The translations under genes and the position numbers were made by a program. The notes under the pieces are model-generated. The model saw only the letters and a list, made by a program, of their open reading frames with translations, was not told the DNA's origin and ran no database searches. A stretch of 64,000 bases of DNA from Yuukianura sp. NJ FZ-2021 (lineage: Eukaryota): contig CM102287.1 in the NCBI GenBank assembly GCA_046563655.1, forward strand, positions 4,340,001 to 4,404,000, written 5' to 3'. Shown piece after piece: positions 27,284-51,900 of this stretch (the stretch's first letter is position 1; each line of letters starts with the position of its first letter).

Positions 27284-28313
27284 ATGACAGATCGAGAAGA
27301 ATGCTGGGTTACCTTGGCTCGGTCGGATCGTGAAGGACTTGATGCCCTTGTCTGTTCGAAGGCTCTGCGGAGGTCATTGACCTCTAGGAAACGTACAGTG
27401 CTGATTACAGATGGGGTCACGCATCACATGAAGTAAGGTCATTGACCTTTGACCTTTGACCTTTTTGAGCATACTTCAGTATCTTAATCTTCGTTTTAGA
27501 TTCATCTTGAGCCAAGAGTACGACCATGTTGTAAGGATTGAACAAGATGACCTTCAAGGACTTGAGATCAACCAGATCAAATTGGTCCTGTGGACACTTA
27601 AGGCCTGGAACAAATGTGTCTTCCTTGATGCTCAATTGATGGTAACAAATTTTCTGCAAAATTTTGGAAATTTGATCTAAAGATTTTGTGTTTTAAAAAT
27701 TTCAGATTCGTGAAAACTGTGATGAACTTTTTGATCATGAGGAACTTACAATTTCTGAAACTGGAAGTATTTTGGTTCTCAAACCACAACTAGATACGTT
27801 CGAACAACTTTTAGAACAAGCTGAAAACACAAAAGATGCAAAAGGTGAAAAATCGAACATGCTCTGACCCACTTTTTTTAAATGACCTTTGACCCCAACT
27901 TTTTTTAAAAATGGTTTTCAGACATGGACTTATTAAAATCTTACTTCAAGGACCATCATCTTCTACCAGAAAATTTTGTGCAAAATTTGGAAAATCCGGA
28001 TTCACGAGCAACGTCAAAAATTTTAGATTGCTCCGGACACAATTTTGGTTTAAAAAACTCCAATTTTCAAAAGGTAGTGAAAGTTGTGAAATGCTAAAAA
28101 GTGTTTTTTCCCAGGACAGAAATATTTAATGAAATTTAGTCCTGAAAAATTTGAAAAATTGTTTTTTGAAAAATTGAAAACTTGGAACTACATTTTCTCG
28201 TTTTCACTAACAATTTTATAAATTTTCTTCATAATTTTAATTTTCAGGACCATACTCATCCCTGGGAATCAATTTACTACGAGGATGTGCTTCCATTTCT
28301 TCGTCAACAAAAA
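27284..28313 (+). CDS. N-terminal glycogenin-like domain (exons 1-5 of the fusion gene, 216 aa)
   Basis: Spliced translation MTDREECWVTLARSDREGLDALVCSKALRRSLTSRKRTVLITDGVTHHMKFILSQEYDHVVRIEQ...IKLVLWTLKAWNKCVFLDAQLMIRENCDELFDHEEL...ILVLKPQLDTFEQLL...DLLKSYF...WESIYYEDVLPFLRQQK is colinear with glycogenin (MTDQAFVTL...ALVL...[36 protein letters not shown]...VFVYQPSVETYNQLL...WWNIFTTNVLPLL). Confidence 0.87.
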
Positions 28314-31300
28314 GTAAGTCAATGAATTAATCACTTAAATTAAATGTAACATTATTTTAATAAAAATAATTAATAGTAATTAAAATTAAAATTGCATAAA
28401 TTAAATATAACAATTCTATAATTCTAACAACTTATACATTAGTAAGACTAAATCAACAGCGAAACTTTTCATCGGCAACACTATGTACGTATAGCACTAT
28501 TTTAATTTTTTCATGACTTTAGCGTACTGCAGTAGTGACTTACATCCAAGACTTGCTCAGTTCACTGGAGCTGCCTTCTGACCCCGCCCAAATGCCAAGA
28601 CCACCAGTATCACATGAACACGACCATTCCATTGCCGTGATTGGCATGAGCTGTCGCTTTCCAAGTGGCAACAGCCTGGACGAATACTGGGAAATGCTCA
28701 ACTCCGGCACAGACGCAATCAAATACTTTCCAGCCAACAGACCTCTGCGTTCCAGCGATGTTGATTTGGCCACTAAAATGAAAGCAGGATTTTTGACTTG
28801 TCCAGTAGACGAATTCGATGCAAAATTGTTCGGAATCAGCCCAAGAGAAGCGCCTTTTATTGACCCCCAGCAGCGATTGCTTTTAGAAGTGACGTGGGAG
28901 AGTCTGGAAAACGCTGGAATCAATCCACAGACACTGAGAGACTCCAACGCTGGAGTTTTTCTTGGAATTTGGCAACAAGATTACGAACGCCTTCTACCGG
29001 ATTCACTGTTGTCCACAAATGACTTTTTTCATCGGTACTTGGGAAACGAATTCAGCGCCACAGCGTCCAGGATTAGTTACTGTTTGGGACTTCATGGTCC
29101 AGCGATTGCGACGGAGTCTGGATGCTCTTCGGCGCTTGGTGGACTGCATCTTGCGTGTGAAAGTTTGAGACGCGGAGAAACTTCGCTGGCGATTGCTTCA
29201 GGAGTCAACTTGGTCCTGATTCCATTCAATCCCTTTTCTGGAAAAGGAGAAGAAGCAGTAGTACTTTCAAAGGATTTCAAATGTAAAACTTTCGATGAAA
29301 GCGCTGATGGATTTGTTCGGTAAGCTTGAAATTCTAGAAAATACAGTGAAATGGTTGAAAATAGCGTAATTCTTTGAAAAGTCGTAGAAATTTCAGGGAT
29401 TTAAGAAAAATCGTTCAAATTCTTTGAAAATAGCGCGATTTTCTGAAAATTCGTGAAAATTTCGGCGATTTAGGAAAAATCGTTCAAATTCAAAATCTTT
29501 AGAAATAGCGCGATTTTCCTGAAGCTTTAAACATTCTGCGTCATCAAGCATCAACTATTTATTTAAAAAGTTTTATAGCGTAGCGTTTAATTTGAAAATT
29601 ATCAAATGACAACAAAGTTTTGAAAAATCGCTGAAACTCTAGAGAAGTTTATTGAAAATTATTGAACGTCCTTTTTATTTTTAGAAAATCGATTAAATTC
29701 TTCTGGTTTTTTGAAAAATTGTGGACAAATAAGTCAATTTCTTTAGAAATTGAATAATTTTCAGCAAAATCAAACCAGGCTCATTCGATTGTTTGAAATT
29801 TCAGAGCCGAAGGTTGCGGAGTTATCATTTTGAAGCGATATGCCGACGCTGTTCGTGACGGTGACAATATTTTGGCGCTTATTCGCGGTTCAGCTTTGAA
29901 CAACGACGGAGCCGGAACCAGTTTCGGTACACCAAATGCAAAAGCCCAAATTCGCGTTTTCCGGGAAGCTTTGAAAAATGCTGGAGTGAAGCCTTCTGAA
30001 GTAAGTTTTCTGGAAGCCCACGGAACAGGTACAGTAGTGGGTGACCCCATTGAAATGTACGCAATTGGCGAAGTATATTCAGAAGGTCGTGAGGTCAATG
30101 ACCCCCTCATTGTCAGCTCCGTCAAAACGAATATTGGACACTGCGAGGCTGCTGCCGGAATTGCCAGTATCATCAAAATGATTCTTTGTCTGCGCAAGGC
30201 CAGTATTCCACCGCATTTGAATCTGAATAAACTCAATCCCCGGATTGACCTTGACCGAATTCCAGCCAAAATTCCAACAACAGCGATTCCATGGCCTGGA
30301 ACAAACAAAATCGGAGCAGTCAGTTCATTCAGCATGAGTGGAACCAACGTACACATGATTCTACAAGAAGCTCCAGCGATTTCACAAGAAAAAATCGCTC
30401 CAATCGCTGAATCAGCCGAAACGCCGCAACTCGTCACGATTTCAGCCAAATCTAAGGAAGGACTTACAGCTCTACTTGAGCGATACGCTGAATACTTGAA
30501 ATCGCTGCAAGGAAGCACACCATTGGTCGACATCGCTTATGCAACAAACACTGGAAGAGCAAACTTGACCCACCGTGTTGCAATTCTAGCCAAAACGGTA
30601 TCGCAACTCGAAACAAAATTGGGCAAAGAAAGTTACATTTCCGGTAAAATTTCATCGATTAAAAACAAAATCGGATTTTTGTTTACGGGTCAAGGGTCAC
30701 AGTACCTCGGAATGAGCCGAAACGCCTACGAAACATTTCCAGTATTCAGAACAGCGCTGGATCGCTGCGCAGTACTTTTCCAGGCCCACCTAAAACAGAA
30801 TCTCCATGAAGTTCTTTGGCGGGAAGATTTGAATTTGCTTGAAAAAACAATTTACTGTCAACCTTCAATCTTTTGTGTCCAGTATGCGCTGATCCAACTC
30901 TGGAAATCGTTTGGAATCACACCAGACTTTGTTCTAGGACACTCCGTTGGTGAATTTGGAGCAGCCGTTTGCGCAGGCGTGTTGACGCTGGAAGATGCCA
31001 TGACTTTGGTCATCAGTCGAAGTGAATTGGTCAACAAATTGAGTCCAGGAGCCATGCTAGCCCTGAGATTTCCACAAGAGAAGGTCATCAAGCTCCTACA
31101 AACTTTTAACAAAGAATCGCTTCCAGAAAATCGCTGGATTGATGTCGCTGCTGTAAATTCGCCTGAAGAAATTGTCGTTTCTGGAGGACTTGAAGCGATT
31201 GGACATTTTCGTGATGTTTGTCTCAACAATGGAGTCAAATTCGTTAACATTCCAGCATCTCATGCATTCCATTCTAGAGACATGGACAAAATATTGGAAG

Positions 31301-34300
31301 AGTTTGGATCAATCGCTGCCAAGGTCAAGGTCAACCAACCAAAATGTACTTACATCTCAGGAACGCTTGCAAAGCCACTGGAAGTTGTAGATTTCGGTCC
31401 CGACTACTGGCAGCGTCATCTCCGAGATACTGTCCACTTTTCAGAGGCCATTGACCTCTTGTATAATGACTGTAAAATCTTGGTCGAAATTGGACCACAA
31501 CCGATTCTCCTTGGACTGGCAATGGGCAATCTCCAGGACGTGGCTGCTGGAACATTCTGTCCATCTCTACGTAAAAACGAAGAAGATTCAACAACATTTT
31601 TCAGTACTTTGGGCAAATTGTATACAACTGGAATTGACCTTGACTGGACATCATGGTTTGGCCAGCGGCAAAAGCATCTAACACTTCCAAATTATCCGTT
31701 CCAGCGTCAAAAGTATTGGTTTTCTGGAGAAGAAGTGACAGGTCAAGTGATGGGTCTCAACACGCCTTTGATCCATCCGCTTCTCGGTCGACAGTTTCCG
31801 TCTCCCCTGGAAGATTTAACATTCTGCCAAACTTTTACAACCAAAGAAATAACGTGGGCTGAAGATCATCGTGTGGCAGAAAAAGTTATTATTCCAGCCG
31901 CTGCTTACCTTGAAGCCTTTTTAGCCGCGGGAAAACAAATCCTCCAATCAGGAAACCGCGTTCCGTTGATCATTGAGCAATTAGTTGTAGAAGCGGCTTT
32001 GGAACTGGAAAAACCTGTCCAAATTCAAACAATTGTCAAATCAATTCATCAAGAAAGTTCTGTCCAGTATAAGATTTCAATCAACCGACAACTGGAATCA
32101 CAAAATGATAAATGGAAAGTCCATTCTACTGCAACTTTTAGCCCAAGTTCGCGTCTTCCAGAACATCGATCAACTGATCTTGAGGTGATCAAAGGTCGTC
32201 TGACACACAAAGATTCTCTGACGTCTGTCTACGAAGCAATTTCAGAAATTGGAATCCAATTTGGCCCGAAATTCCAATCCATTTCAGAAGCTTGGTCAAG
32301 TGACGATGAACTGTTGACGAGAATTGTGCTTCCAGAGGGTCACGAATCCTACATATGTCATCCCATTGTCCTGGACGGTATCATCCAGACATGCGCATTT
32401 CGGGAGTACTTGAATGGTACCAAGGATACAACTAATGAAGACAAGCCATTAGTGTTGCCAGTGAGCATCAAGAAGTTTATTTGGTTGTCCCAGCCAACCA
32501 CGTCGACAGTCTATGCTCTCAGTTCCGGATCGGATGGAAACGTCAACTTGTACAGCGATGCTGGGGAACTACTTGCAGTAATGGAAGGACTTGATCTGAT
32601 CAAAACCAGTGTCTCAACGGTCATCCGTGCTCTACGGTCCTACGACTGTCTTGATGTCGACAGAATGACGGAAATCTGGAAACCGAAACTCAGTATCGCT
32701 CAAAACCGGATTGATTTGTCGGCACTTGCAATTCCATCTGGCAATACACCTTACGTCGCCGAGATTTTGCGGATTACAGGCGAACGGGCCTTGGAAGTGG
32801 GTGACCAAATTCCATCTTTGGCCATTCTGCATATCAATTACGTTTTTCGGAGTGCCTTGGAACTGCACTGGCCTTGGGGCAAGGTTGGATCGGTTCTTTC
32901 AACCGAAAAATGGCGACGACTTCTACCGTCTACACTGAATCCACTGACGATCGACGGATACTTTGAGGAAATGACCAAATATGGACCGTATCTGGCTCAT
33001 ACCGACGAACCTGGAACTTACACAATTCTTAAGGTCAGTAGGTCAAAGGTCAATTGACAACTTAAACAATCTTTAATGTAAAACTCATAACTTATTTCTC
33101 CAGGAAATACCCAGTATGGAACAGCTCGAACTGGAAATCAACAGTTGCGTAGCCAAACTCCAATCCTACGCAAGAGAAGGCGAAACTGGAGTCGGATTTG
33201 CCCAAAATTTTGGCGAACACATCACACGCGTGTTGCAAGGGAAGATGACTGGCCTCAGTGTTCTGTTTCCCGAAGATGACACAAAAATTGGAGCCATCAA
33301 GTACTACATGCACGGTGAGTTTTACGAATTTAGCGCTGGACTTGGCCTGGCCTTTGTTTGGGACACCCTTGCTCCATTGGCTGTTGCCAGCAACAGAGGA
33401 TCCGGTATTCTGCGAATTCTGGAAGTCGGAGCTGGATCGGGTGCTGGATTTATTCAACTGCGAGACAAATTGAACGAGTTGGGAATTCCATTTACGTTTA
33501 CATTTACCGATATCTCACCCGTTTTGGTATCCGAGGCTAAGAAGAAACTTGGACCGGACGTGCAATATCAGCTGTTGAACATCGAGGAAGATCCAATGTC
33601 TCAAGGATTTGCACCAGAAGAGTATGACTTTATCATTGCAATGCACGTAATCCACGCAACAGCTGACATCAAAGAATCCCTTACCAACATACACAAACTG
33701 CTGCGTCCTGGCGGTCGACTCCTGATCACTGAGCAATTTGGCATCATGCCGTCAATCACGTTTCCTTTCAGTATGCTCGATGGTTGGTGGAGATTTAAGG
33801 ACTTTAGGAAGCTGAGCCCATTGATTGACGAAGAAACTTGGAAACACTGCTTGAGCGAAACTGGATACAATCAGCTGGAAGCCATTGAGATGCAGGCAAC
33901 ACCGCTGGGAGCTGTGATTGGTCGAAAACAAGAATCAGCTGCTGTGATTGGTCAAACAAAGTCAGCTGACCCGCCGTCCGCAGCTCTAGGTTCGCAGAAA
34001 CCGTGGATTGTGTTCGACGACCAATCCGAGCTGGCCGAAAATATCGTTTCAAGACTAGCCAACTTTGGTAGAAAAGCACTCCGAGTAAGAATCGTTGACG
34101 AGGTCACTGACCTTCCAGAACAAAAAGATGACCTGATCGTGACCTCTCCAGATGACCTTCCGATCGCTTCCATTTTTGAATCCGATGGTGAACCGATCGA
34201 GGGCATTGTATATTTCTGGACTCACCAGGTTCCACAAAACGTTGAAGTAGAACAGAGGCGGCTAATTGTTCCCATCCTAAAAATGTTCCAGTCGTACCAC

Positions 34301-37300
34301 CGCGGCGGTCCAAGATGGAAACGAAAACCGAAGTTTGTTTTAGTAACACGCGGAGTTGCTTATATTGGAGACACTGTGGCTGGAAATCCAGTTGGTGCAA
34401 CAGCCTGGGGACTTGTCAAGTCTGTCATGAATGAGTATCCAGAACTGTCTAGTGTGCTGATTGACGTTGACCAAAACGGGTCAGAGGTCGAGTCGGAACA
34501 AGTTTTTGCCGAACTTTGGACCAGGAGCAAAGAAGCATTCGTTGGACTTCGGCAAGACAAAAAATTCGTTCAGCGATTGGTTTACATGGACAAGGAACCG
34601 ATTCCGCTAAATCTACCGAACACTGATCGCTTCAAATTTATCAACCCACCTTCTGGAGCGTTCTCTGACATCCAGGTAAACTTGAATTTCAATTTTAAAT
34701 TTTTTGAAAAGTTTTTCTAAAATTTTGAAATATTTCAGGTTGGTCCGTCCCAAAAACTGGACGTGAGTGGTGACTCAGTCGAAATTGAAATCCGTGCTAC
34801 AGCGCTGAATTTCCGTGATTTATTTATGGTTCTCAAACCAGAAGGTTTCAATCTACCGCTGGATCAGCTCGATTCTATTGGGCTGGATATCGCTGGAAAA
34901 GTTGTCGCTGTTGGTCCAGAAACGAAGCGATTTCAAGTTGGCGACAATGTGTTTGGATTTACATCGTCCGGTGGACTGGCCAGTCACGTCGTGGCTTCCG
35001 AGAAAGCGCTGATGCTCAAACCAGACTGGATGACTTTCGCTGAAGCGTCAACAATTCCTTGTGCTTTTCTCACCGCTTACGTTTGTCTCGTCGAAGTAGC
35101 AAAAACTACTGCACAGGATCGGGTTTTGGTTCATGTTGCTTCAGGGGGCGTTGGACTTGCAGCGATTCAAATTTTGAAACACATTGGGGCTGAAATTTAC
35201 GCAACAGCTGGAAACAAGCGAAAACGAGCCTACCTCAAAAACCTTGGAATCAAGTACATCTACCATTCGAGGAACACGAGTTACGGAGAAGGGATTTCAC
35301 GTGACACGCAAGGTCAAGGGGTCACCGTCGTCCTGAACTCTCTAACAGGTAAGATTTTTCAAAAATTAATCTAAAATTTTGATTTTTTGAAACTCAAAAT
35401 TGAAAATTTCAATTTCAGGGCCCAATTTCAAGGAAACTACTTTGGGTGTGTGCAGTCAAGGAGCAAGATTTTTGGAAATTGCAAAACTGAACATTTGGAG
35501 TAACGAAGAAGTGAAGGCCCTTCGACCTGATGTGGCTTACGACATTCTGGACTTAAGTACCATGGACACTTCTGAGGGTACTGGGCCCTTATTCGCCGAA
35601 ATGGAAAAGTACATACACCAAGGGATCTACAAGGGCCTCCCCAGCACTAACTTCCCACTGGACCAAGTTCGAAAAGCCTTCTACTACTTCCAAGAGGCCA
35701 AGCACATTGGGAAAATCGTCGTTACCATACCAACAGCATCCTACTCCAATGGAAAACTGACCCTTAGACATGACCTGTTTAACGCCCAGAGTACTTATCT
35801 CATCACAGGGGGTCTGGGGGGCCTTGGAGTTGAAGTGACCAAGTGGATGCTGACCAAGGGAGCCAAAAACATTGTCCTAGCTGGTCGAAGGCCCCCGGCT
35901 CCTCGTGTCCAAAAGTTAATCGATGACTGGAATGCTGGCGGTGGAAATGTGCTGGTGAGGCAAACGGATATTGGAGTCAAAGGAAACTGCGAAATGCTGT
36001 TGAGAGAAATCCAGGAACTGGGACTACCGCCGTTACGAGGAATTATGCATGCAGCGGGAATAATCAGCGATAATTTTATACCGAACCAAACGTGGGAGTC
36101 GATCGAAACTGTATTTGGTCCGAAAGTGTACGGTGGCTGGCATTTGCATGAACTGACGCTGAATTACTCGCTGGAATTCTTCGTTTTCTTTTCTTCCGTG
36201 ACGTGTATGTTTGGTATGATGGGACAATGCAACCATGTCGCTGCAAATCGCTTCCTCGATTCGCTGGCTTTTCTGAGAGAGTCAATGGGTCTTCCAGCCG
36301 TCACGATCAATTGGGGTAAGCAAGCAATTTTTTCGTCGTTTTTCGAAAATGTTTGCTTCAGTTTTCAAAAATGCTGGTTTCATTTGTAAATCGTTGATCC
36401 GTCACGATTAGGGGTATAAATCCGGCATTTTGACGGAATCGGATTCTTCCAAATCCGGATTTCATAAAAATGGAAACAGGATTTGATGGATTTTTCGTTC
36501 CATTTCAGAGTACGATATGCGAAAATAAAAAATTTGAAATAGGAAAAGCTAAATTTAAACGAAAAGTTATATCTTAAATCAAATTTAAAAAAAAAGTAAG
36601 CATTCCTGAGATCTGCAATCTACCTTTTCTGGCAGCACTAGGAGTTTAAAACCAGTCTTTATCCATCATTTTAAAAAATTACATAAATTTCTAATGTATT
36701 TTGAAATCCGGATTTAAATCAGGGTTTTTTAAACCAAAATCCGTCAAAATCCGAAATCCGGATTTGTAGAAAGCGGTGAGGGAGTCATACATACCTCTAG
36801 TCTCGATTAACTGGAGTAAAAATCCCCAAAGAATTTAGTTTAAAAAAAAATTTTTTTTTTTAATTTTGATTTCATTACACTTTTTTTGTGATACAGGAGC
36901 CTGGAGTGACGTTGGAGCCGCAGCACACATCAAGTTAGGTCAAGAAGGATTGTCTGGACTCCGTGCTTTCACACCAGCTCAAGGCACTGCAGCGCTGGAA
37001 AAGGTCATGAAAGGTCATTCGCTGCAAGTCGGGGTCATCGATGTCAGTGATTGGCGGTTGCTGAAACTCATGGTTTGTGGTACTGGTCATTACTTGGACG
37101 AAATGAAATCAGATGACCGTGAGGTCAAAGGCGGCGGAGGTGAATTTGACCACTTAATTCAAGAAATCCAAGCTGCCAGTCCAGACGAACTTGAAGACAA
37201 AATCAGAATTTTCATGATCCACATTCTAAAAGACACGCTGAAACTTCCAGAAGCAGAAGTGGTTGACCTTGACCAAAATTTTAGTGAACTCGGAGTCGAT

Positions 37301-38686
37301 TCTCTCATGGCAATGGAAATGAAAAACAGACTTCAAGGAATTCTCGGCGGGAAAACACTTACAGTCAGCGCCTTACAAGAAAATCGAACTGTGCGGAGCC
37401 TCTCTCGTCACCTAGCGTCTCTCCTGCTTTCAGATTTACCAGAAGCGTCTAATGTGTCACTAAGTGACCTTGTCAAGTCTGATTCCATTTTGCCCGATGA
37501 CATCCGAGCCCTTGAAGGGCCCTGCCTCCTTCCCTCATCCTACAAATCCATTTTCTTAACAGGGGTCACAGGTCACCTTGGCTTTCACGTTCTTCTGGAA
37601 CTTCTGTCTTCACGTCCAGACATAACAGTCCACTGTTTAGTTCGATCCAAGACGCCGGAAGAAGGTCACCAACGTATTGTCCGCAATTTCAGTACATACC
37701 AAATTCCAGAAGTTGACCTGCACCGTGTCACGGTTGTTCCTGGAGATGTCACTCTGGATCGATTCGGACTTGATGCGGCCACTTTTGATTCCCTGGCGAC
37801 CTCCGTTGACGCAGTGCTACACTGTGCCATCAAAGCCAATCACCTTGACTCTTACTCCGACGGCAGTCGAACGGACATGCGCACACACAACGTCTTTGGT
37901 CTCATAAACGTTCTAAGATTCGTCACTTCCGGAAAGTCCAAGCATCTCTGTCACGCTTCCTCCCTCTTAGCCGTGACCAAAGCCACCGAAGATGGACTCC
38001 TGTCCGAAGATTTTCCGAGTATTGACGACGACGGTGGTTCTCTTCTAAAACAAGGCTACTCTCTGTCCAAGTTCGTCGGAGAAAAACTGCTCGCAGAAGC
38101 CGTGCGCCGTGGAATTCCGGTCACGGTGGTCCGCTATCCAAGTATTTTCGGACACAGTGTCACCGGAGTGATGCCTCCAGGCTACAACCATGCCTGGAAC
38201 ATTCTTTTATCTTGTATCAGAGTTCGAATGGTTCCGAAAGTTTTTCTCGACGGACTTCCGGTTATGCCTGTTGACATTTGTGCTCGGGTCACCGCGTCTC
38301 TGTTTTTGTCCGACTCGGCAGAATCCGGAATGTACAATTTCAGTAACGATACGAACGAAGACAGTGATATCCTGGAGGTGTTTCAAGAATTTGGAATCAG
38401 TGCGGAGTATGTAACGTTTGAAGAGTGGCGGGACGCTGTTTTTGATGACACCGCGGGTGATCCAAGCATTTTAGGTCCAGTGCGTGACCTCTACAAGAAC
38501 GACACCGAAAGCAGTCCAATGGACATCCATCCTCTGGGGAATCAAATGGACACTGTGAGCTGGTCCACTTTGAGCAAAAAGTTGGAACGAAATGTACCCG
38601 ACATTCGGAAGTGGATCATCCCCCCAAAAGTCGTTTTTCAACGACATCTGAACTACCACTACAAATCAGCGACGAGTCAACCGTAA
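27284..38686 (+). CDS. Glycogenin-like (GT8-fold) domain fused to a type I polyketide synthase: GT8-KS-AT-DH-cMT-ER-KR-ACP-thioester reductase, ~3180 aa
   Basis: Eleven exons with phase-consistent GT-AG introns: 27284-27432, 27500-27641, 27706-27844, 27922-28073, 28248-28313, 28523-29319, 29805-33033, 33104-34675, 34739-35348, 35419-36315, 36897-38686 (9543 nt, 3181 codons including stop). An alternative start is the micro-exon 26326-26332 spliced to 27291. Motifs: KS ESGCSS (Cys 29123), AHGTGT, KTNIGH; AT GQGSQ, GHSVG, HAFH; DH HPLLG, DHRVAEKVIIP, DGIIQ; MT LEVGAGSG, VIHAT; ER VHVASGGVG; KR YLITGGLGGLG; ACP LGVDSL (Ser 37301); reductase FLTGVTGHLG, YSLSK. The PKS part is near certain; the fusion is inferred from splice logic. 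Confidence 0.88.
29357..29522. repeat. Intronic degenerate tandem repeat, ~69-bp unit, ~2.4 copies
   Basis: gaaaatagcg...gaaaaatcgttcaaattc recurs inside the KS intron 29320-29804. Confidence 0.7.
36409..36799. mobile_element. Non-autonomous hAT-like MITE in the last PKS intron
   Basis: Terminal inverted repeats TAGGGGTAT (36409-36417) / ATACCTCTA (36791-36799), 8/9 match. 8-bp target-site duplication GTCACGAT (36401-36408) / GTCTCGAT (36800-36807). Subterminal inverted repeat ATTTTGACGGA/TCCGTCAAAAT and several AAATCCGGATTT palindromes. No ORF. Confidence 0.75.
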
Positions 38687-39002
38687 GGTCAAAGGTCATG
38701 ACACAAAAAAAATTGCAAGCTGAAAAAGTCCAATTTCCTGCCAGTTTGATTTCAAACTCGGTTTCCGAAAGTTTCCGAGTCGGTTGACCTTGAAACTGGC
38801 AGTATAAAAACTAAAAACATCGATTTTCAGGCAGGCATGCGCACAAGAAGGCAGTTTGTGTATCCTAAGTTTTTCGTAAAACTTGAAAAATTGTACATTA
38901 TATTATTTTTTGGTTGTTTTTATAAATAAAACAAGTTTAGTTTAGTTTTCTTTTTTCATTTTAGGAATTGTTCATGGTTGACCTCAAACTATTTATGAAA
39001 GG

Positions 39003-42000
39003 TCAAAGGTCATCGTCATCGATGTTTTGCGTATCTTCAGCATTTTCGTTCTTTTCTTCCTCGGTTTCTGACACTTCAAAAGATGTATCCGGAATTTCTT
39101 CAAAATTTTCCTCTTCGTTCCAAAACGCTTCAATTTCGAATTCTCCCGCCAGGGATTCTGGCGGCGTCGGAGCTGGAGCGCTGAAATTCATGTTTTTAGA
39201 AACCGAAATTTTCTGGCCAGACGTCGGCAAGTAAAATTCATCTTCTCCGAGCAGCGATTCTTGAGCTGATTCTGCATCTTCTCCCATTGTACCTTCGTAC
39301 GCTTTCAGCGTTCTGAGTTGCTCGGAATCCTTCAAGCGATAAGTGTAGTCCATCTCTACGGCCACTTGGAGTCGCTGTTCCAACGGAGCCTTCTGATTGG
39401 CCAAGATTCGAAAAGCGTCCTTGAAGTACCTCCACTCGTCCCGCCCTTTCCAGCGATTCAAAATTGTTTCCAGCTCTCTTTCTACTGGATTATCTTCGCT
39501 GATTTTGTTCAGTTCGTACATATCATCAGCGACCTCGTCTCGCACCAGTTTCAGCGTTCCGTAAGCATCTGCTGGCAGAAGTCGTTCAATGAAGAACGCT
39601 GCGGTAATATCCTGCGAAATTCCAAAAAATTAAAAAAAAAATCAAAATTTCGGCTAAACCTTTCAAAATTTTGAATATTTTTCTAACCCGTGGCATTTCA
39701 TGAGGCGGTTCGGCTTTGGTTTTAGCAGTCTCAGCAGCCCATTCACCTTCGGCATCTTCCGGATGCAGAAGTTCTGAATTTTTTACCTCTACGTCGGACT
39801 GAGTCCTTTGCTTATGAACCAAAACACTGTCCAAATGTGGAAACGAAGCGACGAGTTCGGACAGCTTCGGGTCACCACTTTGACGTTGCGTGTCAAAGGC
39901 CACTGAAACTTTCTGCTCGTCTTCAGTTGACGATGTTTCGGGATTGGTAATTGACACGACTGAACTGTGCGTGTGCGATGTCTCGGAATCGGCTTTGACG
40001 TACCAGCTTGACGTTGACGTTCGTGCTTTAGAAACATATTTTTTAGCCTCTTCTTTCTGTGGAGCTTCGTAGAAATTCGGAAGGAAGTGGGGCAGATCCA
40101 CCTCTTCAAGTTTTTCTCCTGGAATTCAAAATTTTGAAAATTTTGAAATTCCTAAAAAATCAAGTTACATTGTTATGTTAGTTTCTGTAATGTAAAAGAC
40201 CTCTAACCTTTTGTGGTGATGAGAGTGACAAAATTTTCCCGTGGAATTTTTGGGGGGTCAAGGTCAGGTTCAGCCAAAATGCTGAAGGCTTTGACCACAT
40301 CTGAAGGCAAAACGCCTCCGTCTTTGTGATTTGCAAAGAGAATCAAAAAATCGTCGTAGCGAATTTCGTTTTGCTCTTCGCCATACTTCAGTCCTAGCAG
40401 AAACTCCGTCTCTTCCAAAATCTGCTCAACCTGAAACGGCATTTTAAAAATTCAGAAAATTTTCAAAAAATTTTGCCACTATTGAATTCCTAGTTCTCAT
40501 TTCGAAATCAACAGCAACCCAAGACTAATCTTTTTGCACAACCGGCTCCGGCTGACTCACAAGTATTCAGAGGCATTTTTAAAATGAAAAGCATTATTTC
40601 GCCGACCACAAAGCAGTTTCGATGGAGAAAATGAGAAAAAACGCCTAGATACTTGTGAGACACCCGGTACAAAACACTACGGGCATTCATTCCAATGTTG
40701 GATTGACCTCTGACCTCTTGTTCCGTTACGAAGTATCCACAAGTACGCATGACCGTTGGAATTTCTGTGACTGGGATTCGTCTGTTCATGCGCACAAATT
40801 CGTCTTGGTTGGGAGCTCTCGTGAGCATCGAATGGTAAAAGATGTTCTCAATGTCGTTTACGACACTTTCTCCAGCAGGAAGATTCCAGTCCAAGTAGCG
40901 TCTGTACGGAGTCACTCCATATCCACCAGTCATTTCAAAATTTTCCATTGCTCTTCAAAAAACAAGGTTTTACAAAATTTCTGACTTTTATAGTCAATTT
41001 CAGAATTTTCAAAATTTTGAAACTTTCCCTTACAGCATTTCTGGCATCCACATGAAAACGGAACAGTCGTTGGCACCTACAGTGAAGATTTCGCGTCCTT
41101 CGTAACTAAGCCCAAGCCCTACGATCTGCTCATAATTCAAAATTCAAAATTTTAAAAAACATTTTGAAATGAAATTTTTGGTTTCTTATGAAATTTTAGT
41201 TTTCAACTTACACCTTCCGGATGTGCAAACACCGACATTGCCTTGAACGGATTTCCATCAACAGGAGTTTTGATGAGACCAAGTCTCTCCTTTTGAATTG
41301 TCAAAATCAGCTTGGTACTTCCGCCTGCACTGCTCTCAGGAGCAATTAACTGGGCAAAACACAATTAAACTAATTGATTAACAAACAATTAAGTTCAATT
41401 TTAACTACAATTTAAAAGTGTCCTAGGCTTACAGTCATTGAGGTTATCGGACTTCCATAATTCGGAGCTTGGCAAGTTTTACGAATTTTGTATTCGTCCT
41501 GGTCAAAAACCCGGATCTTGTTCTGCAAAACCGAGAAAGTGTGAGAGGTCAAATGTTAGCACAAAAAGTCAAAATATAGCACAAAACGTCAAAAGTCAGC
41601 ACGAAGAATTAAAGGTCAGCATAAAATGTCAAAAGTCAGCACAAAGAATCAAAAGTCAGCACGAAGAATCAAAGGTCAGCAAAAAAAAGTCAAAGGTCAA
41701 CAGCTCCTTACTTTCGTAGTGGCATAGTGTATGAGTGGTCCATGCTCTGAAAATGCTTCAGCGAAGACCATCGCTGTTGGAATCGCTGTCACTTCAACAT
41801 TAGTGATTTGCAGAATCTCGAGTCCCGAAACAGCCCGACTCTCCGCAATGTTATACTCAATGAGTCTCCGATCTTCTCCGAGTGAAAAGTATCGCTGAAA
41901 ACCAAGTTCGGGATCTTTGAAAAAACAAATGTCAACTACAGGATGGTAGTGGGACTTGTGTTTCCCTTTGATCGTCCATGTAACTCTCTCTGAATGGAAG

Positions 42001-44772
42001 TTACAAAGTGTAACAGTGTTGGCAGTATCCTAAAAATTCAAAATTTTGAACTCTTTTTTCAAAAAACAGAAAACTTTGTTTAAATCGTTTCCTTACGAAA
42101 AGTCCCAAATAAAGCCCGCAACTCGAAAATTCAACTTTCATAATTTTTGATTTTCCGACTGCAAGCGGAGCGTCCATTGGCGTCAGCGTAACTGCACGGC
42201 GAAAGTAGAGCGTCCCTGTGGTATTCCCAAGCACAATCAAGGCTCCTGTTTCACAAAATTTTTACACATTTTTTTAAAATTTCGAATTTTGAAATTTCGG
42301 GATTTCTTTTCAAAAAAGTACCAGAAGGATGGTACTTGATTGTCGTCACAACCATTTCCTTAGTAAACAGTTTTCCACTGAAAATGACTTCATTCGAATG
42401 GTAATCAACCAGTTGGAAGTCACTCGTCGGAGTACACATGGCCAAGTGTGTTCTAAATTAAAAAAAAAGCAGTGACCTTGACCTTTGACCTTTCAAAGGT
42501 CAAAGGTCAAGGTCACTTACGTTATGGGTGACACGGCCATGATGGCTGAAGAGGCATATTTCCCAAGCGACTCTGGCACAATGAGGTCCATTCTGCCTTC
42601 GGCAATATGAAAATAGGCCACAGCTCCATCTTCATAACCTACAGGCAAAGTATAAAGGTCAGAGGTCATTGACCTTAGACCTGAGGTCAACTAAGGTCAA
42701 TGACCTCTGACCTCTAATTTTACTTGAGGTCAATGACCTTACCAACGACCATGTCTAGACACTCTTTAGGTTGATGGAGAGGGTTTCGCTCCAAAGTTGT
42801 TTCGGAAGGTGGTCGATACTTGGTTCCGCCAAAAGTGTAGTCGTAGACGGCACTGATTCCCTCGCGGTGAAAAGTGTTGTGAGGGTAGCCATAAGTGAAG
42901 TAAGTTTTTCCTATGTTGACAAAAATATATAAATATAAAATAATAAATTAATATGAAATAATATATTTGATGTAATAACTCACTCATTTCTTTCTTCCAG
43001 AAAGGCTGGAGTGGATTGGAGCTGAAGGCGATAGAGGTGACAACCTCGTCCCGCGGAATCGTTTTTATCCAGCGCAGAATCCGAAACTTCGTGTCCAGAA
43101 ACCGGACGCCACCAAGGGAGTCACCAACGACAATGAAGCTACAAAAAAAGGTCAAGACCTTTAGTCAACGTCAAGCAAAGGTCAAAGGTCAACTCAAAAT
43201 GAACATACTCCTTGTGTAGAACGATGGCAGTGATGGACAGATCCTCGTCGATCTTGATGAATCTTCGAAATTCTTTGATATTGTGATTCGGATCTGGCGC
43301 TTCTTCTAATCCCAGAGCTTTCTGGGCTTTGAACTCCAAAATGTAGCCTAAAGGTCAAAGGTCAAACTTTTAGGAAGGTCAAAGATCAAAGGTCAAAGTT
43401 CAAAACAGAGTGGAAGATGACCTTTCGTTGTACAAATGAGCACAGAGTCTTGAATCCAAATTCCAGTTGTGAAGTCTCCCAAACGTGACATCAATTTCCA
43501 GTGACCTTTGGCCTGGCGGTAAATAATTTTCCGCTCTTGCCGAAGCTGAAATGCAAATTTTTTTTCCAAAATGACAAATTTTCCGAGTTTTTTTTTAAAA
43601 TTGGTATCCAAAATTTTTTAAATTGTAAAAAACTTGCCCAAGTGTAGAACAGGACCGTCCGTTGTCCGTAAGTTACAAAGTGATGCGGCTTGTCAGTGCT
43701 GGCAAGTATTTTGTGGTGTAAAGTTTTCTTAAAATATAAAGTCTCACTCGCTGTTTCAAAATTCAAAACGAGTTTTAAAAAATCGTTTTTCATATTTCAA
43801 GTTTCATTTTTTTCAGTTTTTTTTTTGTAAATTGGACCTTCCAAGTGTGATTCCTTGTGTCCGAGAGTCCAAATGCTGACCATTTGCTGATTCTGAGATG
43901 CTGGAGTACCATCACCAGAAGTGCTTGGGGTCAAATCCTTAACACAGTGGAGAACTGCTACATCCGCGTGACCTCCCCCGACAAAGGTCACGTCACAAGC
44001 ATCTTGCCATCGAGCATTCGGGTCACCCGAGTCAATCTGACATGCGCGAGACAGCAATCCAGTATGGACGTTCCAGATAATCAACGTCGGTGGCTGGAAC
44101 GGTTCTTCACCACTTCCGGAATCCACTGTGACGATGTGCTCGTAGTTTTCTTCCTGATGCAGAGCAGCTATCTTCTGAGTCTAAAAAAACAGAATTTTAA
44201 CCTTAGTTTCAAAATTTCAAAAAACTTTCAAAAATTATTTCAATCTTACATGTCCTTGTAAAACACTTTGCTTGTTGTTGTAGAAGTCGAAGAAAACGAG
44301 GACGCTGGAAGCGACATAAGCGATATGACTCCCATGAATTCCTGACAAATTCAAAACTTCCTTGACGTTCTTGTTCCTCCCAAAAGCTCTCAGCAATTTC
44401 TAAAAACCAAAATAAAATTTAACTTTTTTGAATTTCGAAATTTCGGGTTTTGAAAATCACTTTTTAAAAACTGGGCGTTACCAATGGAGGTAAGTTCTGT
44501 CCGCTGGATCCTTGTTGCCCTGGAATTGCCGCAGCTTGACTCTTTTGTGTTTTGAGTACTAAGGGCCCAGTTTCTGCATCAGCGTCTTGTGACCTTTGAC
44601 CTCTCCTTGCAAAAAACTGGATTTCTTCCAGAAATTGAATTGTGAATGGATCTGACTCATCTCGAATCAAATCTCCCGCCAGTCCGTACACCCCACTGCG
44701 ATTGATTTCTGTTGATTGGATTCTTTCTACTGGACGAGCTGCTGGACGCAACGGAGGAGCTGCTGGCGACAT
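39003..44772 (-). CDS. CFAP251: Cilia- and flagella-associated protein 251 (WDR66), WD40 repeats plus EF-hand-like C-terminus; multi-exon
   Basis: Spliced minus-strand segments include YFSLGEDRRLIEYNI, KIRKTCQAPNYGSPI, LGLIKTPVDGNPFKAMSVFAHPEG, LSYEGREIFTVGANDCSVFMW, IFYHSML...IPVTEIPTVMRTCGYFVTEQEVEQILEE and DITAAFFIERLL, which I recognise as colinear with CFAP251. The start codon and some exon borders are uncertain. Confidence 0.85.
40548..40667. mobile_element. Small degenerate Tc1/mariner-like MITE in a CFAP251 intron
   Basis: CCGGCTGACTCACAAGTAT (40548-40566) versus the reverse complement of 40649-40667, CCGGGTGTCTCACAAGTAT: 17/19 match. Further internal inverted match AGGCATTTTT/AAAAACGCCT. 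TA follows the right end only. Confidence 0.55.
41551..41700. repeat. Intronic minisatellite, 20-bp unit (aaaagtcagcacgaagaatc-like), ~7.5 copies
   Basis: 20-nt periodicity read directly; lies within a CFAP251 intron. Confidence 0.85.
42471..42517. repeat. Perfect inverted repeat, 23-bp arms, 1-nt spacer
   Basis: agtgaccttgacctttgaccttt-c-aaaggtcaaaggtcaaggtcact; fills most of the minus-strand intron 42453-42520. Confidence 0.95.
42656..42713. repeat. Perfect inverted repeat, 23-bp arms, 12-nt loop
   Basis: aggtcagaggtcattgaccttag (42656-42678) / ctaaggtcaatgacctctgacct (42691-42713), inside the minus-strand intron 42639-42742. Confidence 0.95.
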
Positions 44773-48902: not shown

Positions 48903-51900
48903 TCATTTAGCAACTCCGTCTGAACTGGATCCGTTTCCACCAGAACGCAGACCTTCAATCTTTGCACAAAGTTTGAGTGCTGGTCCCAACTTCATGCCAA
49001 TGGCAGACATGAGATGGTCTTCCTTCAGAAGTAACAGTGCCTGCCCATCAATTTCTTGAACAGCAAAGTCATCTGCATACTCCGAACATCCTGGAAGTGA
49101 CTTCACAAAGTCCACGACCTCTGATACACCCCATTTGACTGGATTGACACGACTCTCCTCCACTTCCATTGCTGACGGTTCGTCATTTGCCGATGCATCG
49201 CCAACCGAACTGCTAGTTTCGTCGGTAAAGTCCATTCCAGTGTCACCCTGCAACAAACACCAAGGTAAGCATGAAAACTTTTGGAATTTCCCAAACTTAC
49301 TTTCAAAACGTTTCAAAAACGTTTGAAAATTTATTTCTAATGTTCCGTCTTACCCATTTCCGTCCGCGATTCTTCTTCTTCTCTTCTACTTGATTTCCGT
49401 GACTATTTGTAGACGTGGCTTGAGCTTGCTGTTGAGCTGCTTTCATCCCTTTAGCGCACTGTGACGAACAAAATCGCTTGTTCTTTTTGAATTTCGCTTT
49501 CAAATCTACTTTCCCGCACATTTCGCATTTCCCCATTTCTCCACTCATTGCTGATTTCTTTTCTGCAAAATCAATTCAAAAACAAAATGAGAACAGAACG
49601 ATTTTCTTACGATTTTTGAAAAAGTGATTTTTTTTTCCTGCGAAATGCAAACTTACTCGGTGGTTCTTCAACTTCTCCGTGCTTTGGCATTGGAAACGGC
49701 TCAGATGCCTCCTGGATAACAAATCCTTCTATTACATGCGTCAACACTTGTGGTTTGACCATCGCTTTGGGCAGTTTCTGCTTCAGCGATACTTCCTCAG
49801 CTTCTTCTCCATTGCTCACTCCATTTACAGCCTTCAGCTTGTTCTCCTTCTCGATTTCATTTCTAAAACAAAAGTCAAATTCAACTCAATTTCGAAAGAA
49901 ATACTGCCACAACTTTTATGAATCTGCTTACGCTTTCTGATCATGACCTTTGACCTCTTCCTTGGCTTCGTCTTTCTTTGGTGTATTTTGTGTTACTGGA
50001 GGTGGAGCCGGCGTGATGGAAATGTTCGGACTAGGAACCTGCGTCGTAAAAACTTGCAGTGCCGGTGGCATGGACTGGCCAGCATTCGACTGCTGCTGCT
50101 GCTGTTGTTGTTGTTGGGGCTGAGATCCTTGTGGAATCAACGGCGTGATTGTGGCATCAGGCAGATTTGGCTGAATAGCAGAAATATTTATAGTTTTCAA
50201 ATGTGATACCATTTGTTGCGGTTGTTGCTGCGGTTGACTTGTTACTGTCACTGGCAACCTGGCCAACTGCTGATTCACTTGATTTTGGTTCGTTTGGTTC
50301 TGTTGCTGTTGTTGTTGGAATTGCTTCTGTTGTGGATTCGGTACACTTATGATAGTAGTTCCAGTTCTGGGAGGTTGTAAAACTGTCGTAGCCGATCCCG
50401 GTCCAGCCGAACCTCCGCGTGGCGTACTTTTTCTAACTTTCTGTCTCGGTTGTGGCAATTGGAGTCCATTAGTAGTCGTCGGCTGTTGCGCAGTCGCTGG
50501 TGCCTGGCTGGTCATAACCGTAACTCCAGCAGTTGTAGTAAAATTGGGCCGAATCGCTTGTGGTTGTGGAATAATCTGAATTGATTGGTTCTGGATTTGA
50601 TTTCCCTGCGGAATCAGCGTCAGTCTGGGTTGTTGTTGTTGTTGTTGGTTATTCTGTTGTTGTTGTTGTTGTTGAGCCTGTTGCAGAACTTGAGTTGCTT
50701 GAGACTGACTAATTGAAATAGACTGTGGAATCATACTGGCAGTAGTAGCTTGTGGAATCATTTGGATTTGTTGTTGATTCGGTTGGGTCATTGTGACTTG
50801 AAACTGCTGTTGAAGTTGATGCTGATGCTGGAGTTGATGAGTTTGTTGTTGTTGTTGTGTGTTGGGTTGGATTTGGAGTGGTGGCGGTTTGGGTTGTAAG
50901 TTGGCGGGAGTTTTGACCGATATGACATTTGGTTGGGGCTGAATAGCTTGTGGCTGTTGTTGTTGATTCTGTTGTTGTTGTTGCTGCTGATGCTGCAGCG
51001 TTCCCTGTTGAATCGTTTGTTGAACTTGAGTTGATGTCGGGGGAGCGGGAGCGATTGAAGTCGTTGTCAGCTGACCAGTGTTACTTTGCAGGGCTAAAAT
51101 TTGAAAAAAGTTCATTATTTTCTCACATTCCTCCAAGATCTGTTGAATTTTAGTTTTTGGACTTACGTTGCATTGAAAAATGCTGGGAAGTAGCATTACT
51201 CGTCATCTGTGGCTGGATATACATCTGTTCCGGATGTGTTCCTCTAATGAGAAAAGAATTCTGGCCGCCAGTAGTAAACAGCGTTTGTGGCCACAGTCCT
51301 TGCTGTAACTGCGCTCCAATCATCTTCGGCATTTCTCCGGGTTTACCCTGCTGATGCTGGATTTGGAGCGGAGATGTTGGTGAAAAGTTGGAAATGATGT
51401 ACTGCTGTCCAACTGAGTTGTTGGATCCGCCGCTGGTAGGAATTGCATAACTTGCTAAAAACAAACAAGAAAATCCACATTTCAGAAAAATCGAAACTTT
51501 CAAAACAAAATCAACTTTTTCTAAAAAATTCTCTTCTTACTAGTTCCAGGCAGCATATGCGTTGTGAACTGATTCTGGATTGGTTTAGTTATCACCTGAG
51601 TATAACAAAAAGTCAAGTTTAGTACAACTTACCACAACTTTAGGGAAAAGCGTACCATAATAATTCAATTTGTAAGTGTAACTACTTCAATTAGCACAGA
51701 AACACTGAAACTACAACTGATTTCACTCTGGCAATGCCTAATCTCGGTGCTTTAAGCTTCTGCTTGACTATTGGACAGCAAACCTCCAACTTCGACAACA
51801 CATAGCTTACTAAACTGTTCACATTCATTCTACTACAAATACAAGTTAAAGGCGTAGCAATGTTAATGCTGGTGCTTATGATTTGCGAGAAAATTACACC

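Follow-up and report, generated by a model that had tools for sequence, protein, structure and literature searches.

Glycogenin (GYG1/GYG2; CAZy family GT8; PDB entries 4ueg, 1ll2, and 3t7m, among others) is a stand-alone, dimeric enzyme with a C-terminal tail that binds glycogen synthase; its DxD motif binds Mn2+ and UDP-glucose, and both the acceptor tyrosine and a histidine that binds metal lie in its C-terminal third. In polyketide synthases (PKSs), the ketosynthase (KS) forms the core of the dimer and its interface. The genome of the springtail Folsomia candida was described as containing 30 type I PKS clusters, with most genes of its biosynthetic clusters called horizontal transfers (Faddeeva-Vakhrusheva et al. 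2017; PMC5490193), and one horizontally acquired PKS of this species, OXA62418.1, is cited by Lin et al. 2024 (PMC10764717), as stated in the passages of the two papers considered here. The same passages of PMC10764717 describe animal fatty acid synthase (FAS)-like PKSs (AFPKs), which descend from animal FAS. Here we analyzed a stretch of 64,000 nucleotides (nt) of Yuukianura sp. NJ FZ-2021 (GenBank assembly GCA_046563655.1, contig CM102287.1, positions 4,340,001 to 4,404,000 of the forward strand), hereafter the window, in which five short exons resembling glycogenin lie directly before the exons of a bacterial-type PKS. We read this locus, with a probability of roughly 0.6, as one gene for a chimeric megasynthase of 3180 amino acids (aa), in which an N-terminal pseudo-enzyme derived from glycogenin would serve as a structural cap.

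Splicing of 11 GT..AG exons of the + strand from the DNA (27284-38686; Table 1) yielded a single frame of 3180 codons, with the terminal TAA (38684-38686) as its sole stop and with an in-frame stop 9 codons 5' of the start ATG at 27284. Exons 1 to 5 joined to 648 nt, or 216 stop-free codons, ending ...FLRQQK in phase 0 before GTAAGT at 28314, and after the acceptor AG at 28521-28522 exon 6 opened in phase 0, reading RTAVVTYIQDLL...IAVIGMSCRFP. Unlike glycogenin, the domain encoded by these exons did not stand alone, since the frame passed a 209-nt intron straight into the pre-KS linker and the KS. The exon coordinates, splice donors and acceptors, stop-free 216-aa part, phase 0 entry into the KS, and 3180-codon frame given in a preliminary description of the window all agreed with the gene as rebuilt. 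G+C content was 33 to 51% in exons and 16 to 36% in introns. The GT8-like exons were short (66 to 152 nt) compared with the long PKS exons (maximum, 3229 nt), and the spliceosomal introns in the gene indicate a eukaryotic host.

The relationship of the N-terminal domain to glycogenin was assessed exon by exon by comparison with PDB sequences (E ≤ 10). Every one of the 19 matches of exon 2 was a glycogenin (best E = 0.0066, to residues 66-104 of glycogenin-2), as were 18 of the 24 matches of exon 1 (E values from 0.08, residues 3-46), of which the top match was to an unrelated protein (E = 0.025), and all four matches of exon 3 were to residues 110-154 of glycogenin-1, although weak (E = 1.5). 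Because exons 1 to 3 matched glycogenin collinearly, these matches are not due to chance. Exons 4 and 5 gave no match to glycogenin in this comparison and one unrelated match each. The 260-aa N terminus of a homologous protein of the springtail Orchesella dallaii (P0259) matched glycogenin-2 with an E value of 1e-11, and 19 glycogenins and one GT8 Skp1 galactosyltransferase were among its 22 matches with E ≤ 1. We then used an alignment (A2) of P0259, a second O. dallaii protein (P0251), exons 1, 2, 3, and 5 of the window, and exons A, B, C, and F of a metagenome locus (L001); exon 4 of the window and exons D and E of L001 were left out because they had been misplaced in an alignment of all fragments (A1), which was discarded. 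The A2 profile matched 20 PDB sequences with E ≤ 0.01, namely, 19 glycogenins and one GT8 Skp1 galactosyltransferase, with no bacterial GT8 structure among them, and the best match spanned residues 3-265 of glycogenin-2 (E = 4.8e-32, 240 positions). The ESM feature neighbors of the P0251 domain were GT8 clusters (score, 0.95 to 0.96). Homology to glycogenin extended across the catalytic domain, with shared blocks FVTL.., KCVFLDA, N.DELFD, VFV..PS, and LW..VY...VLPL. Pairwise identity among the four GT8-like domains (window, P0259, P0251, and L001) was 25 to 33%, and the window domain was the shortest (216 aa, versus 238 to 262 aa in the homologues). Judged by the collinear exon matches and the family profile, the N-terminal domain clearly appears to have a GT8-like fold derived from glycogenin, and the assignment made in the preliminary description holds.

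In contrast to glycogenin, in which the DxD motif reads DAD, all four homologues lacked this motif, with DAQ at the corresponding position in the window, SPN in P0259, DAG in P0251, and DTR in L001. Because DxD was lost in every copy and differently replaced each time, classical retaining glycosyltransferase activity is unlikely, and the four different replacements argue against a conserved metal site. In the alignment of exon 3, the window also lacked eight residues corresponding to WPDCFNSG of glycogenin-1, a stretch that we take to be part of the sugar pocket of glycogenin. The DG[GA]DQ block of glycogenin was represented by DGGD in L001 only and was unconserved in the window, P0259, and P0251, whereas the lysine aligned with the KLHCW block was retained in these three. 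Exon 4, which covers the acceptor-loop region, showed no detectable match to glycogenin and was shorter than the corresponding part of P0259 and P0251; residue-level alignment of this diverged region is unreliable. As far as these replacements tell, the GT8-like domain is most likely a pseudo-enzyme.

The remainder of the gene encoded a type I PKS. Pfam placed on exons 6 to 11, in this order, the KS (ketoacyl-synt and Ketoacyl-synt_C), acyltransferase (AT; Acyl_transf_1), dehydratase (DH; PKS_DH_N/PS-DH), methyltransferase (MT; Methyltransf_12), enoyl reductase (ER; ADH_N/ADH_zinc_N), ketoreductase (KR; family KR), acyl carrier protein (ACP; PP-binding), and thioester reductase (R; NAD_binding_4, E = 7.3e-50), which bears out the order KS-AT-DH-MT-ER-KR-ACP-R proposed beforehand. 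All active-site motifs searched for by pattern in the spliced protein were present: the cysteine and both histidine motifs of the KS (GCSS/HGTGT/NIGH), GHSVG and the malonyl-type HAFH of the AT, HPLLGRQFPSP of the DH (a near match to HxxxGxxxxP), motif I of the MT (ILEVGAGSG), GGVG of the ER, GVDSL of the ACP, and GVTGHLG and YSLSK of the R domain. By its domains and motifs, this part is predicted to be a highly reducing type I PKS, complete in a single module, which includes a C-methyltransferase and ends in an R domain for reductive release; we expect iterative chain extension to yield a reduced aldehyde or alcohol that is probably methyl-branched.

Outside the PKSs that carry the GT8-like domain, the best named matches of the KS were all bacterial PKSs (38 to 50% identity), and the KS-AT linker families were of bacterial type (CurL-like and RhiE-like; Pfam). 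These bacterial matches and linkers set the KS apart from the AFPKs, which, according to the passages of PMC10764717 considered, resemble the window gene as animal-encoded type I PKSs making reduced or methyl-branched polyketides. With the horizontally acquired type I PKSs of F. candida, as far as the parts of the sources considered describe them, the gene would share the residence of bacterial-type PKS genes in an arthropod genome. Two bacterial modular PKSs (P0001 and P0004) had KS domains with 46 to 47% identity to that of the window, and the alignment ran through 23 to 35 residues before the KS, a stretch that in P0004 was the very N terminus of the protein. These bacterial proteins are multimodular and have no GT8 domain, whereas the window has a folded eukaryotic domain where the bacterial protein begins. 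The 23 codons from the acceptor to an ATG at 28592 were open and aligned with the pre-KS linkers of P0001 (from residue 56 on) and P0004, so this stretch looks coding and needs an upstream start.

An exhaustive search with the ACP-R exon recovered fragments of the size of an open reading frame (ORF) (e.g., P0241, 581 aa, 68% identity) and full-length proteins, among them P0259 (3219 aa). Exact look-up identified P0259 as CAL8085358.1 and P0251 as CAL8118605.1, both unnamed protein products of O. dallaii, so that the nearest named relatives of the window protein were springtail proteins, which makes an animal host plausible; the UniRef label of P0259 is "Erythronolide synthase, modules 3 and 4." The window protein and P0259 aligned in a single high-scoring segment pair (residues 6-3105 versus 10-3136, 36.3% identity). 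In P0259, the KS began at residue 260 behind a homologous domain of 240 aa, and the order of the Pfam domains from KS to R was the same as in the window. When the 216-aa domain was compared with 390 proteins by blastp, P0259 (28.6% identity over 238 columns, E = 1.4e-18) and P0251 (36% over 105, E = 7.6e-15) were matched, with no further significant match in the other six rows (E ≥ 3.3). In P0251, the GT8-like domain was followed by the start of the KS (...EPIAIVGMSCR), after which the model skipped to the DH without most of the KS-AT part, an evident mis-splice. Both O. dallaii proteins resembled the window protein in their architecture and in the loss of DxD but differed in that the GT8-like part was just 27 to 33% identical and in that they are automated, uncharacterized models. 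Among 15 related PKSs scanned with Pfam, P0259 and P0265 had an N-terminal extension before the KS; in P0322, P0280, P0299, and P0295, with 28 to 32% identity to the ACP-R part of the window, the KS began within the first 40 residues.

A third relative was the metagenome locus L001, reached via protein P0243. By tblastn, a GT8-like part (626-1273, E = 1e-13) lay upstream of a KS with 61 to 72% identity to that of the window, and the rest of the PKS lay on the same strand. The GT8-like part of L001 was only about 25% (tblastn) to about 33% identical to that of the window, yet the first three introns had the same phases in both (2, 0, and 1), and the last GT8 exon was 66 nt long and in phase 0 in both, ending ...VLPLLIRKK in L001 and ...VLPFLRQQK in the window. 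The intron joining the two parts was 101 nt in L001. Two further introns, one following ...GFV(R) in the KS and one preceding the ACP-R exon, also occupied the same alignment positions in the two loci. No start codon was found for the L001 gene. The GT8-like-PKS architecture thus appears to be conserved at least among the window organism, the metagenome organism, and a springtail. The preliminary description had proposed one megasynthase, and the occurrence of the same GT8-like domain and PKS in CAL8085358.1, aligned end to end, and in P0251, together with the conserved exon phases of L001, points the same way.

Word-index protein searches with the KS exon, the 1086-aa exon, and the ACP-R ORF had returned only bacterial or metagenomic PKSs with ≤50% identity, or none; the relatives recovered by the exhaustive search were probably masked by the length limits of these searches (2000, 5000, and 3075 aa) and by crowding with multimodule PKSs. 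No relative was obtained when metagenomes were scanned with the exon 2 ORF. The extension of P0265 (Logan, 3053 aa, KS from residue 104) may include the C-terminal half of the domain, in one ORF with the KS, but is a lead only, with a blastp match to residues 163-215 of P0259 in a comparison of three sequences (E = 5e-5), no match to a four-sequence hidden Markov model among the 390 proteins, and no PDB match with E ≤ 10. At least five predicted O. dallaii proteins were relatives of the ACP-R end of the PKS, namely, P0259 and P0266 (on the same contig of 3.04 Mb), P0251, P0260, and P0254; several of these models were truncated, and a paralogue family is suggested.

The four loci share the adjacency of the two parts, the last GT8 exon is stop-free with its size and phase kept, the distance to the KS is short, and the linker looks coding; fusion is therefore the best reading, and we consider it very probable, from comparison of the sequences, that the GT8-like domain and the PKS are parts of one protein. 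The multiexon, eukaryote-type GT8 part, set against the intron-poor, bacterial-type PKS, would fit a chimeric origin, from a glycogenin paralogue of the host and a PKS gained by horizontal transfer. The PKS may have been acquired first and then have come under the promoter of the glycogenin paralogue, taking over its start codon and 5' exons, after which the fusion would have been retained in a lineage that includes springtails. In the predicted protein, the N-terminal 216 aa would form a GT8 domain derived from glycogenin, with five short exons of host-like character and no metal-binding DxD, and the C-terminal part of about 2960 aa would be a bacterial-type PKS that builds an acyl chain iteratively, with the thioester reductase using NAD(P)H to release an aldehyde or alcohol. 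Sitting directly before the KS, where bacterial PKSs carry a docking helix, the folded domain would act as a structural and possibly dimerizing cap rather than as a sugar transferase; we infer such a role from this position and from the dimeric nature of both glycogenin and the KS.

Several observations weigh against the reading as one capped megasynthase. The structural or dimerizing role is argued by analogy. For the O. dallaii proteins, which are automated models, a merger of neighboring genes is conceivable, and one of them is visibly mis-spliced. Pfam GT8 (PF01501), which the preliminary description had expected Pfam or InterPro to report, matched none of the five single exons, nor the 260-aa domain of P0259 at E ≤ 10, even though homology to glycogenin was clear by the other searches. 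AlphaFold2 modeling of the P0259 domain with the A2 alignment gave a mean predicted local distance difference test (pLDDT) score of 49 and a predicted template modeling (pTM) score of 0.35, with confidence only in the first beta-alpha-beta units. Finally, both in the window and in L001, a stop follows soon after the last GT8 exon and an in-frame ATG occurs early in the KS exon, so that a two-cistron arrangement is possible. Reading through intron 5 of the window adds VSQ before a TGA at 28323-28325 (3 codons), AATAAA follows at 28359-28364, and the ATG at 28592 lies 14 codons before IAVIGMSCRFP; in L001, the stop comes 10 codons into the joining intron, the KS exon has the ATG as its second codon, and the donor, GTCATA, is weak. 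On this basis, the locus could give two adjacent or cotranscribed products, a glycogenin-like protein of 219 aa ending ...FLRQQKVSQ and a PKS starting at ATG 28592 (MPRPPVSHEHDHSIAVIGMSCRFP), with the fused models elsewhere being prediction merges; the four related PKSs that start their KS within the first 40 residues would be in line with this. We nevertheless regard two products as unlikely, since gaps of just 209 and 101 nt leave little room for a terminator and a promoter, GTAAGT is a perfect donor, the last GT8 exon has stayed stop-free, at 66 nt, and in phase 0 in two genomes despite about 33% identity of the GT8 parts, the open stretch of 23 codons leading up to ATG 28592 aligns with bacterial pre-KS linkers, and the tails that read-through would add are unconserved (VSQ versus VISPVKSVTP). 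An operon resolved by trans-splicing was discarded; no spliced-leader RNA was found in the window by Rfam scan, and we know of no operons in springtails.

Two other readings accept the fusion but differ on what the domain does. It might still be an enzyme or a sugar binder, either glycosylating the polyketide alcohol released by the R domain independently of DxD, as in the one-gene glycolipid synthase of the preliminary description, or binding a nucleotide sugar such as UDP-sugar, a glucan, or glycogen particles so as to tether, place, or regulate the synthase. The glycogenin fold signature is kept over the whole length of the domain, the KLHCW-aligned lysine is kept in three copies and DGGD in the fourth, and an alcohol acceptor could come from the terminal R domain. 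The absence of DxD from all four copies, with four replacements, the lack of the WPDCFNSG-equivalent residues in the window, the unconserved DGGD in the other three copies, and the C-terminal third, where glycogenin holds its acceptor tyrosine and metal-binding histidine, being the least conserved part, make a live domain improbable and leave the glycolipid synthase unsupported; by analogy with glycogenin, a repurposed fold that anchors or dimerizes the PKS would fit the data better. Conversely, the GT8 exons could be no more than a captured 5' leader that supplied a promoter and start codon to a foreign PKS, with the 216 aa decaying and functionless. The domain does evolve much faster than the PKS (about 25% identity, versus 61 to 72% for the KS, between the window and L001 by tblastn), its catalytic motifs are lost, and the window copy is the shortest. 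However, four homologues of only 25 to 33% identity have preserved the frame, the splice sites, and the pattern of the hydrophobic core, and the family profile still matches glycogenin over 240 positions, whereas a neutral leader would gather stops or indels or shrink to a few codons; a functionless leader is accordingly improbable, and the capped megasynthase remains our preferred reading.

The gene would thus be a variant, with a new N-terminal domain, of the horizontally acquired PKSs already known from springtails. To our knowledge, a glycogenin-derived domain directly before a KS has not been reported. The word "glycogenin" occurs 0 times in the main texts of PMC5490193 and PMC10764717 and in two supplementary files of PMC5490193, and no description of a glycogenin-PKS fusion was found in the open-access literature searched (titles, starts of abstracts, and passages of PMC13389473, PMC10825826, and PMC8460440), subscription papers being outside its reach. 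The GT8-like-PKS architecture appears to be undescribed so far, in keeping with its having been put forward as uncharacterized. Because Pfam misses the domain, the fusion will escape architecture databases, which may be why it has gone unreported. Springtail PKSs of bacterial origin are known, but far less is understood about how genes of foreign origin come to be expressed and integrated. The window gene suggests one route, in which a foreign synthase acquired, by in-frame fusion, the promoter, the start codon, and five short exons of a host gene, and the fusion was kept across distant relatives. If the domain dimerizes or scaffolds the synthase, it would be a new natural alternative to the docking helices of bacterial PKSs and a possible part for engineering; if it instead tethered the synthase to glycogen particles, carbohydrate stores would be coupled to specialized lipid synthesis in an animal. 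The products may also be relevant to the unusual chemistry of springtail cuticle and defense.

Table 1. Exons and joining intron of the GT8-like-PKS gene in the window and GT8-like exons of the homologous metagenome locus
Feature	Position	Strand	Description
Exon 1	27284..27432	+	Start ATG; N-terminal strand and helix of the glycogenin-like domain (MTDREECWVTLARSD...); matches glycogenin residues 3-46; aligns with the N termini of P0259 and P0251
Exon 2	27500..27641	+	Most conserved glycogenin block (KCVFLDAQ); DAQ opposite glycogenin DAD
Exon 3	27706..27844	+	NCDELFD...ILVLKPQLDTFEQLL; aligns with glycogenin-1 residues 110-154; lacks the eight residues that are WPDCFNSG in glycogenin-1
Exon 4	27922..28073	+	Most diverged part of the domain, also shortened; counterpart in L001 encoded by two exons; placed by family alignment
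Exon 5	28248..28313	+	66 nt; last helix of the glycogenin-like domain (WESIYYEDVLPFLRQQK), matching the C-terminal helix of glycogenin-2 in the profile alignment; stop-free, phase 0 end
Intron 5	28314..28522	+	209 nt, 21% G+C, GTAAGT...TTTAG; joins the GT8-like part to the PKS
Exon 6	28523..29319	+	Pre-KS linker (RTAVVTYIQDLLSSLELPSD...) and KS N-terminal domain; Pfam ketoacyl-synt, E = 2.8e-64; first in-frame ATG 28592
Exon 7	29805..33033	+	KS C-terminal domain, KS-AT linker, AT (GHSVG, HAFH), DH
Exon 8	33104..34675	+	C-methyltransferase; Pfam Methyltransf_12, E = 4.1e-16; motif I present
Exon 9	34739..35348	+	Enoyl reductase (ADH_N, ADH_zinc_N; GGVG)
Exon 10	35419..36315	+	End of ER and ketoreductase; Pfam KR, E = 3.9e-56
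Exon 11	36897..38686	+	ACP (GVDSL), thioester reductase R (GVTGHLG, YSLSK), stop TAA 38684-38686; Pfam PP-binding, NAD_binding_4
L001 GT8-like exons	623-765, 847-1000, 1100-1247, 1314-1413, 1491-1572, 1649-1714		KS exon from 1816; all junctions in frame

At the 3' end of the gene, the stop TAA fell within a donor-like sequence, GTAAGGTCA (38683-38698), with the same start as intron 1 (27433); an extra 3' exon beyond the TAA is conceivable, yet P0259 ends at a similar length. Intron 6 (485 nt), which splits the KS domain, held a tandem duplication at 29355-29491 (69-nt unit, 2.0 copies, 85% match). The 13-mer AGGTCAAAGGTCA, which has the form of a DR1 nuclear-receptor half-site repeat, occurred with ≤1 mismatch at 33 sites between 21073 and 55515, versus 0.12 expected (e.g., 27443-27462, 33040-33052, 38686-38698, and 42479-42509); the flanks of its copies were unrelated, so that they do not belong to one long repeat. 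Three copies followed donor-like GT sites of the PKS gene at a distance of a few bases (in intron 1, in intron 7, and right after the stop codon), and a near copy, AGGTCAAAGGTTA, was located upstream of the homologous gene in L001 (about 445-457).

Elsewhere in the window, a 20-nt tandem array (GTCAAAAGTCAGCACAAAAA; 7.6 copies) at 41548-41699 ended in a near copy of the AGGTCA motif, and scans of the window for Rfam families and tRNAs gave no match. An open frame of 714 aa at 59713-61854 (+) had no Pfam match; its ESM neighbors were animal POM121/FG-nucleoporin-like clusters (0.91, low recognition), and it was followed by coding-like tandem repeats of 24/30 nt (62486-62652). The sole Pfam match among 28 other ORFs of the window that were compared was a SAM (sterile alpha motif) domain (E = 2.2e-14) in an open frame at 48906-49349 (-).

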